A stretch of 64,000 bases of DNA, taken from assembly GCA_002422205.1 (NCBI GenBank), contig DITS01000001.1:19221-83220 (forward strand), read 5' to 3'. The stretch comes from Alphaproteobacteria bacterium UBA6178. GTDB lineage: Bacteria > Pseudomonadota > Alphaproteobacteria > Rickettsiales > UBA3002. The notes under the pieces were generated by a model. That model did not search any database and was not told the DNA's origin. It was given only the letters and a program-made list of their open reading frames with translations. Positions 3,866-63,984 of this stretch are shown piece after piece (positions within the stretch are counted from its first letter, which is position 1; the number at the start of each line of letters is the position of its first letter). The position numbers and the translations under genes are program-made.

Positions 3866-4012
3866 GTCATACTGCGGGACGCGCAGCGTCAGCGCAGACT
3901 CTCACGCCGCCTCCTGAGATCCTGCGCTCTCGCGTTGCGAGCCGCAGGATGACAATTACTAAGAGAGGCTTCCTTCGCTCACCCTCACCGTCATTCCCGC
4001 GCAAGCGGGAAC
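3866..4012. repeat. intergenic repeat block: 88-bp element B (3866-3953) plus GTCAT hairpin H1 (3990-4012)
   Basis: B has the ends GTCATACTGCGG...CCGCAGGATGAC and is near-identical to 28052-28139. H1 is GTCATTCCCGCGCAAGCGGGAAC. The block lies between the convergent tyrC and HAD gene ends. Confidence 0.85.
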
Positions 4013-4018
4013 CCAGCC

Positions 4019-26201: not shown

Positions 26202-26341
26202 AAGTGGATCGCCCGGATCGGCGAGGCCGACCGGAGGATGACAGTATCATGAGGGTTGTCACCCCGTGCTTGTCACGGGGTGACAGCATATAAGCAACTT
26301 CACTTCCCCCTCTCCCTCACGGAGAGGGTCGGGGTGAGGGC
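26202..26341. repeat. intergenic repeat block: H8 (26202-26242), H2 variant (26258-26284), E element (26306-26341)
   Basis: H8 is AAGTGGATCGCCCGGATCGGCGAGGCCGACCGGAGGATGAC (homolog at 34032-34072). The H2 variant is GTCACCCCGTG-cttgt-CACGGGGTGAC. E is CCCCCTCTCCCTCACGGAGAGGGTCGGGGTGAGGGC (homolog at 51254-51282). Confidence 0.85.
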
Positions 26342-27951: not shown

Positions 27952-28188
27952 AGTTTTTGCGTTTGCTCCTGCTCTGGGCTACTGCCCTCCGCAATGAGCC
28001 TAATGCTTCGCGACTAAAGGCTCGGACTCCTGTCCTCGTTCTCTATTATTCGTCATGCTGCGGGACGCGGAGCGTCAGCGCAGTATCTTCTGCCACCTCA
28101 TGAGATCCTGCGCTCTTGCTGCGCAAGCCGCAGGATGACAAAATTATGGAAGGCTGTCACCCCGTCGCATGACGGGGTCCGGCCTTCC
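27952..28188. repeat. intergenic repeat block: element A (27952-28040), element B (28052-28139), H2 with outer stem (28148-28188)
   Basis: A is ...TTTGCTCCTGCTCTGGGCTACTGCCCTCCGCAATGAGCCTAATGCTTCGCGACTAAAGGCTCGGACTCCTGTCCTCGTT. B is GTCATGCTGCGG...CCGCAGGATGAC. H2 is GGAAGGC-TGTCACCCCGTCGCATGACGGGGTCC-GGCCTTCC. Confidence 0.85.
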
Positions 28189-31151: not shown

Positions 31152-31255
31152 GTCACCCCGTCGCATGACGGGGTCTGGGCTGAAGTAATGCCGGATACCG
31201 TCATAAAGACGGCATGACAATTCTTCACTGAACTCTGAACTCTGGACTCTGAACT
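31152..31255. repeat. intergenic repeat block: H2 (31152-31175), H3-like (31188-31218), four CTGRACT heptads (31228-31255)
   Basis: GTCACCCCGTCGCATGACGGGGTC; ATGCCGGATACCGTCATAAAGACGGCATGAC; CTGAACT CTGAACT CTGGACT CTGAACT, ending 1 nt from the ftsK stop codon. Confidence 0.85.
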
Positions 31256-33770: not shown

Positions 33771-33867
33771 CTGTGTGGCTGGCACGGGCGATGCCCTTGT
33801 TTAGCCGGTCAGGGCCGAAAGGCAGCAGCCAGAGCAAGACCGCATCGGGTCGCCGCCAGCCACACTT
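33771..33867 (+). ncRNA. ffs: signal recognition particle RNA (4.5S/small SRP RNA)
   Basis: GTGTGGCTGGC (33773-33783) pairs with GCCAGCCACAC (33855-33865). The apical motif GGTCAGGGCC-GAAA-GGCAGCAGCCAGAGCAAG matches the E. coli 4.5S domain IV GGUCAGGUCC-GGAA-GGAAGCAGCCAAGGCAG. Its position upstream of dnaX-ybaB-recR is a common synteny. Confidence 0.85.
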
Positions 33868-34384
33868 TAGTTTGTGTCTGCTCCTGCTACGGCCTACTGG
33901 CCTCCGCAATGAGCCTAACGCCTTCGGCAACTGAAGGCTCGAACTACTGTCCTCGTTCTTTACTTCTCTTCCTTTCTTCCTTTTTAATCTTGTCATTCCC
34001 GCGACAGCGGCAATCCAATCTGACTTGGTTCAAGTGGATCCCCGGGATCGGCGATGCCGCCCCGAGGATGACGGTATCCGTAAGCTTGTCACCCCGTCGC
34101 ATGACGGGGTCTGGCCTTGCTTCTGCCAGCCCCACTTTGTTTGCGTTCGCCCTCGCTTTGCACTACTATGCTACGCGAGGAACCTAAGCGCTTCGCGCAC
34201 TACAGACTCGGCCTGCTGACCTCGCTATCCCATTTGTCATGCTGGCGCTCAATGCCAGCATCTCATCCCACGCGCCGGATACTGGCGTCAAGCGCCAGTA
34301 TGACGCCCTCCTCTCCCCTTGCCGCCTGCCTTCATTCCGCCACGCCTGCATTTTTACTGAACTCTGGACTCTGAATTCTGGACT
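33868..34384. repeat. 517-bp solid mosaic of repeats between ffs and dnaX
   Basis: Modules are A (33868-33957), H1 (33992-34014), H8 (34032-34072), H2 (34088-34111), a diverged A copy (34136-34226), an H4 pair (34236-34261 GTCATGCTGGCG...; 34279-34304 ...CGCCAGTATGAC), and heptads CTGAACT CTGGACT CTGAATT CTGGACT (34357-34384). Confidence 0.85.
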
Positions 34385-40009: not shown

Positions 40010-40080
40010 GTCACCCCGTCGCATGACGGGGTCTGGCCTTTTTATTTAGCTGCCGGATGCCGTGACAAGCACGGCATGAC
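40010..40080. repeat. intergenic repeat block: H2 (40010-40033, followed by a T-run) and H3 (40057-40080)
   Basis: GTCACCCCGTCGCATGACGGGGTCtggccTTTTT; ATGCCGTG-acaag-CACGGCATGAC. Confidence 0.85.
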
Positions 40081-41112: not shown

Positions 41113-41134
41113 TGTTTTACTACCCTTATCATCA

Positions 41135-41258
41135 GACTATCCTGCCTTGTCCTATTGGACTATCTTGCCTTGTCGCCCGACACCAGTATCTATCTTTTCC
41201 TGCCTAACCGACACCCGCACCCTCCGCCCAAGATTCTGGGGTCAATCCCCAGAATGAC
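41135..41258. repeat. intergenic repeats: 17-bp direct repeat x2 (41135-41151, 41158-41174) and hairpin H6 with its CCTCCGCCCAAGAT flank (41221-41258)
   Basis: GACTATCCTGCCTTGTC / GACTATCTTGCCTTGTC (period 23); CCTCCGCCCAAG-ATTCTGGGG-tcaat-CCCCAGAAT-GAC. Confidence 0.8.
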
Positions 41259-41266
41259 ATGAACCA

Positions 41267-49854: not shown

Positions 49855-51234
49855 ATGCGAATCCTTATCTGCGGTGCCGGACAGGTTGGCTATAGCATTG
49901 CGCGTCAGCTCAGCAAAGAAGACAACCAGATCACAATGATCGATTACAACCCCGACCTGATTCAGAAGATCAACGATAATCTGGATGTGCGGGCGTTTGT
50001 GGGGCATGCCGCGCATCCCAATGTGCTCAAAGCTGCTGGCGCGGAAGACGCGGATATGCTCATTGCTGTCACCTATTCCGACGAGGTGAATATGGTGGCG
50101 TGCCAGATCGGTTATTCGCTGTTCAATATCCCTACGCGTATCGCGCGTATCCGCCACCAGAATTATCTCAAGCCCGATTGGCAGTCGCTTTATTCGAATG
50201 AAAATCTGGCGCTGAACGTCATTATTTCGCCCGAAATCGAAGTGGCGCGCGCCATCACGCGGCGGCTGCATTCCCCCGGCACGCTCGACATTATTCCCTT
50301 TGCCGATGACAAGGTGCGCGTGATCGCGGTGCGGGCGATGGAAGGCTGCCCGATGACCAATCTGCCGGTGTCGCTCATCCGACAAAAAGCAGGCGCAGCG
50401 AGCCTGAATATTATCGGCGTATCCAGCGAAGGTAAATTCAGCGTTCCCACTGCGGAATCGATTTTGCGTGCGGGCGATGATGTGTATTTCATTGCCGCTA
50501 GCCACGACACCAAGCGGGTGATGAATTTATTCGGCCATGATGAGCGCGAAGCGCGCCGCGCGATTATTCTCGGCGGTGGCAATATCGGTTTGTTTCTGGC
50601 GCAAGGGCTGGAAGAAGATGTCGATCATGATATCAAACTCAAAATCGTGGAATTTAGCCGCGAACGCGCCGAGTTGATTGCTTCAACGCTCAATAAAACC
50701 ACCGTGCTCAACGGTAGCGCGCTCGACCGCGAGGTGCTGATGGAAGCGGGCATCGACCATACCGAAACCGTGATCGCCGTTACCAATGACGATGAAACCA
50801 ATATCCTCAGCTGCCTGCTGGCCAAGCGTTTCGGTGCCGAGCGCACCATCGCACTGGTCAATAACGCTACCTATGCGCCGTTGCTCACCGATCTGGGAAT
50901 TGACGTGACCGTCAATCCGCGCGAAACCACCGTATCGCGTATTTTAGAGCATGTGCGCAAAGGCCGCATCACCGCCGTGCATGCGATCAGCGACGGCGCA
51001 GCGGAGATCATTGAAGCCGTGGCCATGGCCACCTCCTCGCTGGTCGGCAAAAGCATCGGCGAATTAAAGTTACCCGCCGGTATTATTTTCGGTGCGCTGG
51101 TACGTAAAGACGACATTATTATCCCCTCGATCGAGACCACCATCGCCGAGGGCGATCACATCATCATCCTCGCCACCTCCGCCATGGTGCGCAAAGTGGA
51201 AAAAATCTTCTCCGTCAGTTTGGAATATTTTTAG
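49855..51234 (+). CDS. trkA: Trk potassium uptake system NAD-binding protein TrkA
   Basis: 459 aa. Two RCK/KTN modules (MRILICGAGQVGYSIA; AIILGGGNIGLFLA). Confidence 0.92.
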   Translation: MRILICGAGQVGYSIARQLSKEDNQITMIDYNPDLIQKINDNLDVRAFVGHAAHPNVLKAAGAEDADMLIAVTYSDEVNMVACQIGYSLFNIPTRIARIRHQNYLKPDWQSLYSNENLALNVIISPEIEVARAITRRLHSPGTLDIIPFADDKVRVIAVRAMEGCPMTNLPVSLIRQKAGAASLNIIGVSSEGKFSVPTAESILRAGDDVYFIAASHDTKRVMNLFGHDEREARRAIILGGGNIGLFLAQGLEEDVDHDIKLKIVEFSRERAELIASTLNKTTVLNGSALDREVLMEAGIDHTETVIAVTNDDETNILSCLLAKRFGAERTIALVNNATYAPLLTDLGIDVTVNPRETTVSRILEHVRKGRITAVHAISDGAAEIIEAVAMATSSLVGKSIGELKLPAGIIFGALVRKDDIIIPSIETTIAEGDHIIILATSAMVRKVEKIFSVSLEYF

Positions 51235-51253
51235 GCCCAGCCTTTTCTCCTTG

Positions 51254-51461
51254 CTCCCTCCGGGAGAGGTCGGGCTGAGGGCCCTTGCTTATGCTTCGTA
51301 GTTGCTAGTTGTCAGCCTTCAGTTGCCAGTCCAGCCTCGCCACCGTCATACTGGTGCTCAAGCTCAGTGTCTCCACCTGTATCCTCCGCCCAAGATGCTG
51401 GCATCAAGTGCCAGCATGACGATAATCTGTGCTCCGTCATACTGGCGCTTGACGCCAGTAT
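51254..51461. repeat. intergenic repeat block: E (51254-51282), YAGTTGC-type heptads (51299-51333), H4-like (51345-51370), H4 (51395-51420), H4 (51436-51461)
   Basis: CTCCCTCCGGGAGAGGTCGGGCTGAGGGC; TAGTTGC TAGTTGT CAGCCTT CAGTTGC CAGTCCA; GTCATACTGGTG...; CCTCCGCCCAAG-ATGCTGGCA-tcaag-TGCCAGCAT-GAC; GTCATACTGGCG-cttga-CGCCAGTAT. Confidence 0.85.
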
Positions 51462-51478
51462 CCACTAAGCGGCAAGCT

Positions 51479-51682
51479 TCAAGCCGCACGTTTACGGGCG
51501 GCTTTGCTCCATAACTCTTCATGCACCGTATAGGCCACCGTTTGCACCAGCGGCTCGATGATGCCAATACCAAACGCAATGATCCAGCTGCCGCTGATGG
51601 CATAGGCCACCGCAATGGCCACCACCATGTGCATTACGCTGTAGCTCGCTGTTTTCCATGCTTTGCGTTGGATAACTGACAT
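51479..51682 (-). CDS. DUF2061-family small membrane protein
   Basis: 67 aa. KAWKTASYSVMHMVVAIAVAYAISGSW..AFGIGIIEPLVQTVAYTVHEELW. Confidence 0.65.
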   Translation of the reverse strand: MSVIQRKAWKTASYSVMHMVVAIAVAYAISGSWIIAFGIGIIEPLVQTVAYTVHEELWSKAARKRAA

Positions 51683-53611: not shown

Positions 53612-53843
53612 TTTTGTGTTTGCTCCTGCTGCGGGCTACTGCCCTCCGCCAGCGCCTGACGCTTACGCGACTAAAGGCTCGGTCTACTGACCTCGGTTTT
53701 ATGTCTTGTCATTCCCGCGAAAGCGGGAATCGAGCCCTACCTCTTCACTGGATACCCGCTTTCGCGAGTATGACAATCAAAAAGTAAAAATATTCCGCAT
53801 CACCAATACGGGCAACCCTTCACTGAACTCTGTACTCTGAACT
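53612..53843. repeat. intergenic repeat block: A (53612-53698), H1 (53708-53730), H1 variant (53751-53774), heptads CTGAACT CTGTACT CTGAACT (53823-53843)
   Basis: GTCATTCCCGCGAAAGCGGGAAT; GATACCCGCTTTCGCGAGTATGAC. The A copy is in the same orientation as the other A copies. Confidence 0.85.
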
Positions 53844-57865: not shown

Positions 57866-57939
57866 GGCCCGATGGCAGAGTGGTGATGCAGCGGTTTGCA
57901 AAACCGTGAACGTCGGTTCAATTCCGGCTCGGGCCTCCA
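57866..57939 (+). tRNA. tRNA-Cys (anticodon GCA)
   Basis: GGCCCGATGGCAGAGTGGTGATGCAGCGGTTTGCAAAACCGTGAACGTCGGTTCAATTCCGGCTCGGGCCTCCA. The cloverleaf folds and CCA is encoded. ORF 57748..58011 on the opposite strand is spurious. Confidence 0.93.
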
Positions 57940-58046: not shown

Positions 58047-58196
58047 ATTGCCTCCGCGGCTCGCCTCCTGCTCGCCCGTTAGGCGCCGCTCAAGGCTGAT
58101 GCGGTTTACTAACCGCATGTTCCATTGCCTCCGCGGCTCGCCTCCTGCTCGCCCGTTAGGCGCCGCTCAAGGCTGATGCGGTTTACTAACCGCATG
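58047..58196. repeat. perfect tandem duplication of a 73-bp unit (period 77)
   Basis: ATTGCCTCCGCGGCTCGCCTCCTGCTCGCCCGTTAGGCGCCGCTCAAGGCTGATGCGGTTTACTAACCGCATG occurs at 58047-58119 and 58124-58196. Each unit ends in an ATGCGGTT-tact-AACCGCAT hairpin. Confidence 0.9.
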
Positions 58197-58220
58197 CTTG
58201 TTGCAACATCTTTTTAAAAC

Positions 58221-58243
58221 GTCATTTCCGCGAAAGCGGGAAT
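58221..58243. repeat. GTCAT hairpin H1
   Basis: GTCATTTCCGCGAAAGCGGGAAT, 22 nt 3' of the 58266..59114 gene stop codon. Confidence 0.85.
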
Positions 58244-58265
58244 CCAGAGCGCTTACATCCGCGCC

Positions 58266-63846: not shown

Positions 63847-63984
63847 CCCTGCTCCTGCTCCCTGCTCTCGCCCCCTGTGCCCCTCCACCCTCCCCCGTCA
63901 TTACCCGCTTCATGCGGGTAATCCCCCTCACTCCCATTCGGCTATTAAAGATAAGTAGATTACCCGAACAAGTCGGGTAATGAC
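63847..63984. repeat. pyrimidine-rich short-period array (63847-63896) and H5 hairpin pair (63897-63922, 63959-63984)
   Basis: CCCTGCTCCTGCTCCCTGCTCTCGCCCCCTGTGCCCCTCCACCCTCCCCC; GTCATTACCCGC-ttcat-GCGGGTAAT; ATTACCCGA-acaag-TCGGGTAATGAC. Confidence 0.8.

Follow-up and report, generated by a model that had tools for sequence, protein, structure and literature searches.

A 64,000-nucleotide stretch of contig DITS01000001.1 (hereafter the window), from the genome of an uncultured alphaproteobacterium, holds at 41221-41258 and 51383-51420 two short hairpins in which the same flank and nearly the same loop surround stems of different sequence, both of them fully paired. The question raised by these loci is how the two arms of a stem can come to differ together, and what might read the folded form. 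Our analysis makes it very probable that both loci are Ssn-related motifs (SRMs), oriented intergenic hairpin repeats of the kind bound by Ssn nucleases, that they belong to one Ssn-type family in which they stand as right-type halves of inverted doublets, and that their paired stem differences lie within this family. The kind of element and its partner enzyme have been known since 2025, and the two loci are a further example of a known system.

The single-domain GIY-YIG proteins of the Ssn family are site-specific nucleases of single-stranded DNA (ssDNA) (Chenal et al., Nat Commun 2025, PMC11893778). Their targets are hairpin repeats, for which the general name is SRM and the Neisseria name NTS (Neisseria Transformation Sequence; CGTCATTCCCGCGMAVGCGGGAATCYRG), and the cut falls a short distance, a few bases, upstream of the hairpin (PMC11893778). 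In the case of Neisseria SsnA, cleavage is governed by the three bases that precede the palindrome on its 5' side, and binding depends above all on the C that directly follows it; one strand only is cut, the opposite strand, double-stranded DNA and RNA being non-substrates, RNA is not bound, and a change of stem sequence that keeps the hairpin abolishes activity (PMC11893778). The ssn genes are typically flanked by SRMs, genomes rich in SRMs are enriched among symbionts such as Rickettsia and Wolbachia, and an insertion-sequence-like mobility of SRM-ssn-SRM units has been put forward as a hypothesis only (PMC11893778).

Locus 1 (41221-41258) reads CCTCCGCCCAAG-ATTCTGGGG-TCAAT-CCCCAGAAT-GAC and locus 2 (51383-51420) reads CCTCCGCCCAAG-ATGCTGGCA-TCAAG-TGCCAGCAT-GAC; re-reading of the window confirmed both the coordinates and the sequences given in an earlier note on this DNA. 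Their minus strands share the consensus GTCAT-NCTGGNN-NTTGA-NNCCAGN-ATC, and each is predicted to fold as ssDNA into a perfect 9-bp stem with a 5-nt loop, with predicted energies of -9.1 and -10.8 kcal/mol and z-scores of -2.7 and -3.8 for loci 1 and 2, respectively. The earlier note had six of the seven internal stem positions differing. The inner stems (TCTGGGG and GCTGGCA) in fact differ at three of seven positions per arm, namely 1, 6 and 7, around an invariant CTGG/CCAG core; this amounts to six changed bases over both arms. Its statement that pairing is kept in both arms stands, all three changed positions being compensated, and the loops differ by one base. Had the arms mutated independently, the chance that the right arm would mirror all three left-arm changes exactly would be about 1/2268. 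Overall, the loci are identical at 31 of 38 bases, a likeness of which some 1e-3 pairs would be expected in the window on both strands (our own estimate), and the 14-mer CCTCCGCCCAAGAT occurs exactly twice in the window. Homology extends past the 12-nt flank, the minus strand of both loci reading CTTGGGCGGAGG[G/A]T[G/A]C[G/A]GGTG, with three transitions in the spacer.

Both loci fit the published SRM search string, HGTCWYN(0-2)YYVSBRHN(0-5)WNVSBRGN(0-2)RNCYNB (PMC11893778), exactly and on the minus strand: copy 1 at 41229-41259 (tGTCAT-TCTGGGG-ATTGA-CCCCAGA-ATC-ttg) and copy 2 at 51391-51421 (cGTCAT-GCTGGCA-CTTGA-TGCCAGC-ATC-ttg). In an 81-kb supercontig, which consists of the window with 7.3 kb added on its left and 9.8 kb on its right, the string is matched 8 times; 100 dinucleotide shuffles gave 0.31 matches on average and never more than 2. 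The hairpin of copy 1 (41233-41255) begins 8 nt past the stop codon of ispDF (41267) and has the pgpA start (41112) 117 nt downstream of it, while that of copy 2 (51395-51417) lies between the convergent trkA (ending at 51234) and a DUF2061 gene (ending at 51479). The latter spacer holds a third SRM of the same family, also found by the string, on the plus strand at 51435-51465 (cGTCAT-ACTGGCG-CTTGA-CGCCAGT-ATC); it stands head to head with copy 2, and a longer fold predicts pairing between the two.

The frame of these hairpins recurs with other stems. Across the 81 kb, 32 hairpins join a GTCAY head to a paired stem (0-3 in shuffles); they fall into families A to G with a common head, stem base and C tail, and all are intergenic, between housekeeping genes. 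At least six stem families are built on one frame: GTC stands at the head, 5'-AY/RT-3' forms the base of the stem and C makes up the tail. Every family has GTCAT or GTCAC at the head, and the GTC and the C tail are present in both loci and in every intact copy of families A to E. In this regard, the parts that are constant across families (GTC, stem base and C tail) are the parts that are critical for cleavage or binding by Neisseria SsnA. The hairpin reader is most likely a protein that binds the ssDNA form, and the earlier suggestion of recognition by a structure-specific protein finds support, at the level of sequence, in the match to the SRM string and in a nearby hairpin-flanked candidate Ssn gene, which is described below.

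Both loci belong to family A (NCTGGNN), which numbers six intact and three decayed copies and is organized in inverted doublets of the layout [GTCAT-stem-CTCAA-stem-AT]-C-spacer-[AT-stem-TCAAG-stem-ATGAC]. Four doublets of this kind can be aligned over the spacer. The alignment identifies the shared 12-nt flank as the hairpin-proximal end of the doublet spacer, at 41221-41232 for copy 1 (CTTGGGCGGAGG on the minus strand) and at 51383-51394, again on the minus strand, for copy 2; the first C of the flank is the base immediately 3' of the palindrome. This 12-nt sequence closes the spacer in two doublets, and the other two have a related spacer, (C/T)TCATCCCA..CGC. Both loci are right-type halves whose left-type partners have decayed. 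In doublet D3, the partner of copy 1 (41172-41190, plus strand) is reduced to GTC-gcccga-CACCAGTATC, the left arm and loop being gone, and in D4 the partner of copy 2 (51345-51371, plus strand) reads GTCAT-ACTGGTG-CTCAA-GCTCAGT-GTC, with two unpaired positions. D2 (34236-34305), detected both by the doublet alignment and by the SRM-string scan, is an intact doublet with the spacer TCATCCCACGCGCCGG; its left-type copy on the plus strand (GTCAT-GCTGGCG-CTCAA-TGCCAGC-ATC) has one G·T wobble and its right-type copy, at 34275-34305 on the minus strand, has the stem ACTGGCG. Throughout family A, right-type copies are perfect (5/5), and left-type copies are decayed or carry a wobble (4/4).

The shared flank, being the spacer end of an inverted doublet of SRMs, therefore lies within a longer repeat, whose unit is about 75-100 nt. 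A shared flank lying within a longer repeat that holds unrelated hairpins had been named in advance as the outcome that would speak against a link between the two stems; the longer repeat is there, but the hairpins in it are related variants of one family. Scans for CCTCCGCCCAAGAT-N17-21-ATGAC in collections without the source genome returned 4 matches in public genome contigs and 17 in metagenome contigs, all of them chance matches without a hairpin in unrelated organisms.

To what extent pairing itself is maintained can be read from a scan for GTC-AY-N7-N5-N7-RT-C, in which pairing was not demanded, over the supercontig and two homologue loci. The scan gave 40 matches, made up of 23 perfect stems, one with a single G·T wobble, one with a single mismatch and 15 with no more than 7 of the 9 positions paired, a level expected by chance; in shuffles, 0.13 matches had at least 8 pairs. 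At 7 of the 9 stem positions, at least two types of Watson-Crick pair are found. These results support a constraint on pairing, and to that extent the earlier interpretation, unpaired copies being near-absent in the scan (2 of 25 intact copies are imperfect). Unpaired single-arm variants, which had been set beforehand as evidence to the contrary, are likewise rare among intact copies in the 81 kb and the two homologue loci.

The six intact copies of family A have five different stems, and five of the copies differ from one another by transition pairs only. At 34236, the copy with a wobble (GCTGGCG/TGCCAGC) represents the intermediate expected on the way from GCTGGCG/CGCCAGC to GCTGGCA/TGCCAGC, the stem of copy 2. 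Copy 1 (TCTGGGG) departs by two transversion pairs, G-C to T-A and C-G to G-C, for which there is no wobble intermediate. Among copies with a damaged frame, the left-type members of doublets D1, D3 and D4 also have unpaired arms; although the numbers are small, this association is explained better by selection or propagation that depends on the frame than by automatic correction. G·T wobbles outnumber A·C pairs by 4 to 0 in intact copies, and 2 A·C occur in one decayed copy, counts that are too few to call.

A candidate for the enzyme lies close by. A 107-aa GIY-YIG gene is located 324 bases past the window end (window-equivalent 64324-64647; L031 11519-11842), and GIY-YIG is the sole domain of its product (residues 4-78; Pfam E = 4.9e-12), whose length falls in the range of about 94-110 aa typical of the Ssn family (cd10448). 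The protein has Y7, Y18 and E65, the counterparts, offset by one residue, of the catalytic Y6, Y17 and E64 of NmSsnA (PMC11893778), and on the basis of its sequence it is a candidate Ssn nuclease. Its gene stands between hairpins of family E on both sides, and its stop codon falls within the 3' hairpin. The closest homologues, P0122 (L036) and P0125 (L037), are 64% identical and come from two other metagenome organisms; their genes are flanked by GTCATTGCCCGG... and ...GGGTAATGAC hairpins, again with the stop codon in the 3' hairpin, and all hairpins of at least 8 bp at these two loci are at the gene.

The first family-E doublet, at 63897-63984 (GTCAT-TACCCGC-TTCAT-GCGGGTA-ATC ... AT-TACCCGA-ACAAG-TCGGGTA-ATGAC), opens a cluster of at least five such doublets that runs past the window end to about 64950 and surrounds the 107-aa gene. 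Each doublet is followed by 2-3 tandem half-hairpins (gAACAAGTCGGGTGATGAC), and a unit some 170 nt long occurs twice, at 63889 and at 64059. The doublets and the hairpin-gene-hairpin unit have common ends, including about 13 nt inside each end and, with them, the last codons of the gene. Because both ends are shared, the doublets can be understood as gene-less derivatives of the unit that arose by internal deletion, which supports an insertion-sequence-like reading.

Comparison with two relatives, whose TrkA proteins are 84% and 72% identical to the one encoded here, indicates when the repeats arrived. Gene order is kept in both, and their syntenic 20 kb contain no match to the SRM string as against 5 here. 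The glmU/cinA spacer measures 14 and 11 nt in the relatives and 116 nt, with two hairpins, in the present genome. At the site of copy 1, ispDF and pgpA overlap in one relative (L030 1481-1488) and are separated by a GFA-family gene in the other (L025 1093-1523), and the spacer between them here is 154 nt long (window 41113-41266) and holds the hairpin doublet. The insertion has thus broken an ispDF/pgpA junction that was probably translationally coupled. Since the relatives lack the repeats at syntenic sites, the repeats arrived only after the lineages had split. Three other samples contain the same strain at 100% identity.

These observations can be joined into the following mechanism. A Ssn GIY-YIG nuclease would bind the minus strand of each locus as an ssDNA hairpin and cut a few bases upstream. 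The functional strand would be the minus strand, with its GTC head, a 9-bp stem that opens with 5'-AT and closes with AT-3', a 5-nt loop (C/A)TTGA and then the C. The inner stem would be free to change only with pairing kept, since only a foldable hairpin would be bound and, probably, propagated. Within this one SRM family, the paired differences between the loci would then go back either to an old divergence that was compensated or to distinct variant masters from which the loci descend; their spacers diverge by about 12%. We infer that an Ssn of this organism binds family A and that the repeats spread through its action; compensatory substitution, propagation of variant masters and self-templated correction are all candidate routes by which the stems may have changed. 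As regards specificity, it is possible, if doubtful, that the Ssn system of this lineage reads only hairpin shape and the frame (GTC head, stem base, loop class and C tail), in contrast to Neisseria SsnA, which also needs the stem sequence, and that stems diversify freely as a result, or that a panel of Ssn paralogues co-evolves with the stem families.

Several points weigh against this picture. The sole ssn-like gene seen is flanked by family E (TACCCGN) and not by family A (NCTGGNN), and no ssn gene flanked by family A was seen in the 81 kb; given that Neisseria SsnA needs the stem sequence, the 107-aa enzyme may not act on family A. The protein has no NCBIfam match, and its only PDB match is weak, to a UPF0213 protein (1zg2, E = 5e-4). 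The family-E hairpins, for their part, do not match the strict published SRM string. The census covers 81 kb, in which the spacer type with the 12-nt flank is present in two copies only. Finally, stepwise compensation is less comfortable for copy 1, its transversion pairs lacking a wobble intermediate.

This last point leads to a rival account of how the stems changed, which leaves the identity of the element untouched. Bacteria are known to correct quasi-palindromes by template switching, an established source of mutation in which an intrastrand switch during replication or repair copies the mutation of one arm into the other; complementarity could then persist in the absence of selection on pairing. 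Two of the three paired differences between the loci, being transversion pairs without a wobble intermediate, speak for such self-templated correction, and non-wobble mismatches are found in only 1 of 25 intact copies. A process indifferent to the frame should, however, also have mended the left-type copies of D1, D3 and D4. Moreover, stepwise compensation predicts just such a copy as the one at 34236, whose G·T wobble places it exactly between two perfect stems that are observed, and the other five copies of family A differ by transition pairs only. On balance, we consider this route unlikely, though still a live candidate for the joint change of the two arms.

Of the accounts that would change what the elements are, a REP/REPIN origin has some appeal in the short-spacer inverted doublets, which are REPIN-like, and in the intergenic, highly repeated and hairpin-forming character of the copies; these would be repetitive extragenic palindromic (REP) elements mobilized by a REP-associated tyrosine transposase (Y1, IS200/IS605-like) in place of Ssn. 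The GTAG-type head is absent, all families having GTCAT or GTCAC, in this genome as in two other organisms the hairpin-flanked gene encodes a GIY-YIG protein, both loci fit the SRM string, and no Y1 or other transposase is found among the Pfam-annotated genes of the 81 kb, so that such an origin is quite improbable. An equally remote proposal, prefigured by the RNA-level function that the earlier note had considered, is that the pairing is kept by host RNA structures such as terminators, stabilizers of mRNA 3' ends or processing sites. Copy 1 does begin 8 nt past the ispDF stop codon on the transcribed strand, and the wobbles of several families are G·T in the head strand, which an RNA would tolerate. 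In the doublets, though, hairpins point both ways, a terminator has no use for the conserved GTC head or C tail, the head strand of one decayed copy contains A·C, and relatives do without hairpins at the same junctions. Terminator scans found no T-run after either stem (the tails are ATCTTGGGCGG), and the Rfam 15 covariance models, at gathering score, gave no family at the loci and only two tRNAs and the SRP (signal recognition particle) RNA in the window. Together with the failure of Neisseria SsnA to bind RNA (PMC11893778), these results leave the RNA-level function without support, and the hairpins may still have a secondary effect on mRNA. There is, lastly, the notion of an incidental likeness, in which two unrelated hairpins happen to lie beside copies of a short shared sequence. 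Recurrence of a 14-mer in 64 kb is not rare, with about 15 such pairs expected by chance (our own estimate); but the identity at 31 of 38 bases, the further homology in the spacer, the head, loop class, stem length and CTGG core common to five other copies, and the fit of both loci to an independently published motif make coincidence a most improbable explanation, in effect a refuted one. The reading of both loci as SRMs of one Ssn-type family thus accounts best for the evidence as a whole.

Besides family A, the 81 kb contain family B (GTCACCCCGTCGCATGACGGGGTCTGGCC), family C (GTCATGCCGTG...CACGGCATCCGGC), family D (GTCATTCCCGCGAAAGCGGGAATC), family E (GTCATTACCCGC/A) and further families. 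At 40010-40080, a family-B copy (GTCACCCCGTCGCATGACGGGGTCTGGCC, plus strand, head at 40010) and a family-C copy (GTCATGCCGTG-CTTGT-CACGGCATCCGGC, minus strand, head at 40080) together occupy the 116-nt glmU/cinA spacer. Other copies of family B are at 28156, 31152, 34088 and 44357 (minus strand), and of family C at 31218 (minus strand) and 37134. A pair of family-D hairpins at 53708-53775 comprises a forward copy of the Neisseria NTS/dRS3 type (GTCATTCCCGCGAAAGCGGGAATC, plus strand, head at 53708) and a second copy on the minus strand at 53748-53775 that matches the SRM string; further family-D copies are located at 3989-4016, 33992, 44290 and 58220-58247.

As to orientation, all 4-kb bins of the window have a negative plus-strand GC skew, which places the window on a single replichore with a C-rich plus strand. 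In families B and D, plus-strand heads prevail (about 10 to 2), and all families together give about 19 plus to 15 minus, with no clear bias. The 540-nt spacer that separates the SRP RNA gene (33772-33869) from dnaX carries, at 33990-34310, five hairpins of four families in series: a family-D copy at 33992, a long imperfect hairpin at about 34040-34075, a family-B copy at 34088 and the family-A doublet at 34236-34305. This mosaic array resembles the Neisseria intergenic mosaic elements (NIMEs), and a segment of it, AAGTGGATCCCCGGGATCGGC...GCCGCCCCGAGGATGAC, recurs at about 26200 and at -1470.

Other repeats were noticed in the same DNA. Two identical 73-nt direct repeats stand in tandem at 58047-58119 and 58124-58196, just downstream of a tRNA gene (57866-57936); each ends in a hairpin, ATGCGGTT-TACT-AACCGCAT, neither with a GTC head. 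A dispersed repeat, CCCTCTCC(C)-loop-GGAGAGGG followed by TCGGGGTGAGGG, is found in the window at 26308-26340 and 51245-51285 and in the supercontig at 68077, and has no relation to the GTCAT frame. A GTCA-headed family of another fold, GTCAYRCKGCGGGACGCGNAGCGTCAGCGCAG, with imperfect stems and a second GTCAGCGCAG motif, is present in the window at 3866, 28052 and 28139 (minus strand) and in the supercontig at -1300. In addition, a scan of viral sequences for the family-A frame gave one isolated hairpin, GTCAT-CCTGGTG-CTTGA-CACCAGG-ATCTTAGC, at 1324-1350 of an IMG/VR contig of 31% GC (L039); in this otherwise AT-rich viral contig, it may have arisen by chance or may be a target site that a phage carries.

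The discovery is in itself modest, since the kind of element and its enzyme were already published. The present findings add an uncultured alphaproteobacterium, whose nearest named relative is a Rickettsiales metagenome-assembled genome (MAG), to the organisms heavily colonized by Ssn-related hairpin repeats. Within 81 kb, they also illustrate three points that were left open in 2025: a single conserved frame can carry many stem variants, inverted doublets resemble derivatives of the nuclease unit that have lost its gene, and insertion, specific to the lineage, has taken place between genes that are adjoining or overlapping in relatives. If true, the reading by frame and shape, or by paralogues, together with gene-less doublets and empty syntenic sites, would be the first comparative evidence for the mobility of SRM-ssn-SRM units, with offspring resembling miniature inverted-repeat transposable elements (MITEs). 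The finding could in turn reveal how Ssn specificity and the target repeats evolve together and whether the units are mobile, which bears on the use of Ssn proteins as programmable ssDNA cutters. The literature was also searched for work that pairs GIY-YIG with repetitive extragenic palindromic, REPIN or miniature inverted elements, and nothing relevant was found.

The closest known system is that of SRM and NTS. It shares with the repeats described here the oriented hairpin with a GTC(A/T)Y head and a C past the palindrome, the intergenic, clustered and over-represented occurrence, and a single-domain GIY-YIG gene of about 100 aa between hairpins, which here are hairpins of the same frame. 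The enrichment in Rickettsia and Wolbachia is matched by the nearest named TrkA of the host (72% identity), which comes from a Rickettsiales MAG, and family D is here essentially NTS. The differences lie in the stem core, NCTGGNN here in place of TCCCGCG, in the coexistence within 81 kb of six or more stem families that share a frame, and in the ssn-like gene, which here is flanked by family E, outside the strict string, in a system known from sequence only. Neither inverted doublets as gene-less derivatives nor compensated stems within a genome are discussed in PMC11893778, whose main text has no occurrence of 'covari' or 'compensatory'. As for the dRS3 element of Neisseria (ATTCCC-N8-GGGAAT; PMC11893778), the two loci (ATTCTGGGG..., ATGCTGGCA...) do not fit it, whereas family D does, for instance at 53711-53730.

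Wider parallels extend beyond this system. In NIMEs, short palindromes whose outer bases are conserved and whose core varies are laid out as mosaic arrays between genes, and comparable arrays occur in the window, such as the five hairpins of four families at 33.99-34.31 kb. With REP elements, bacterial interspersed mosaic elements (BIMEs) and REPINs, the present repeats share intergenic hairpins that are read as ssDNA by a small nuclease-type enzyme and flank its gene, inverted doublets as the apparent unit, and a copy number that expands in particular lineages; the enzyme fold is HUH/Y1 there and GIY-YIG here, where the GTAG head is absent, and Ssn is not known to carry out any transposition chemistry. 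The attC recombination sites of integrons differ from the repeats in having an integrase and a cassette array, extrahelical bases where the stems here are perfect over 9 bp, and other boxes. What both have in common is that folded ssDNA and short conserved end boxes outweigh the inner sequence, and that the inner stems covary.

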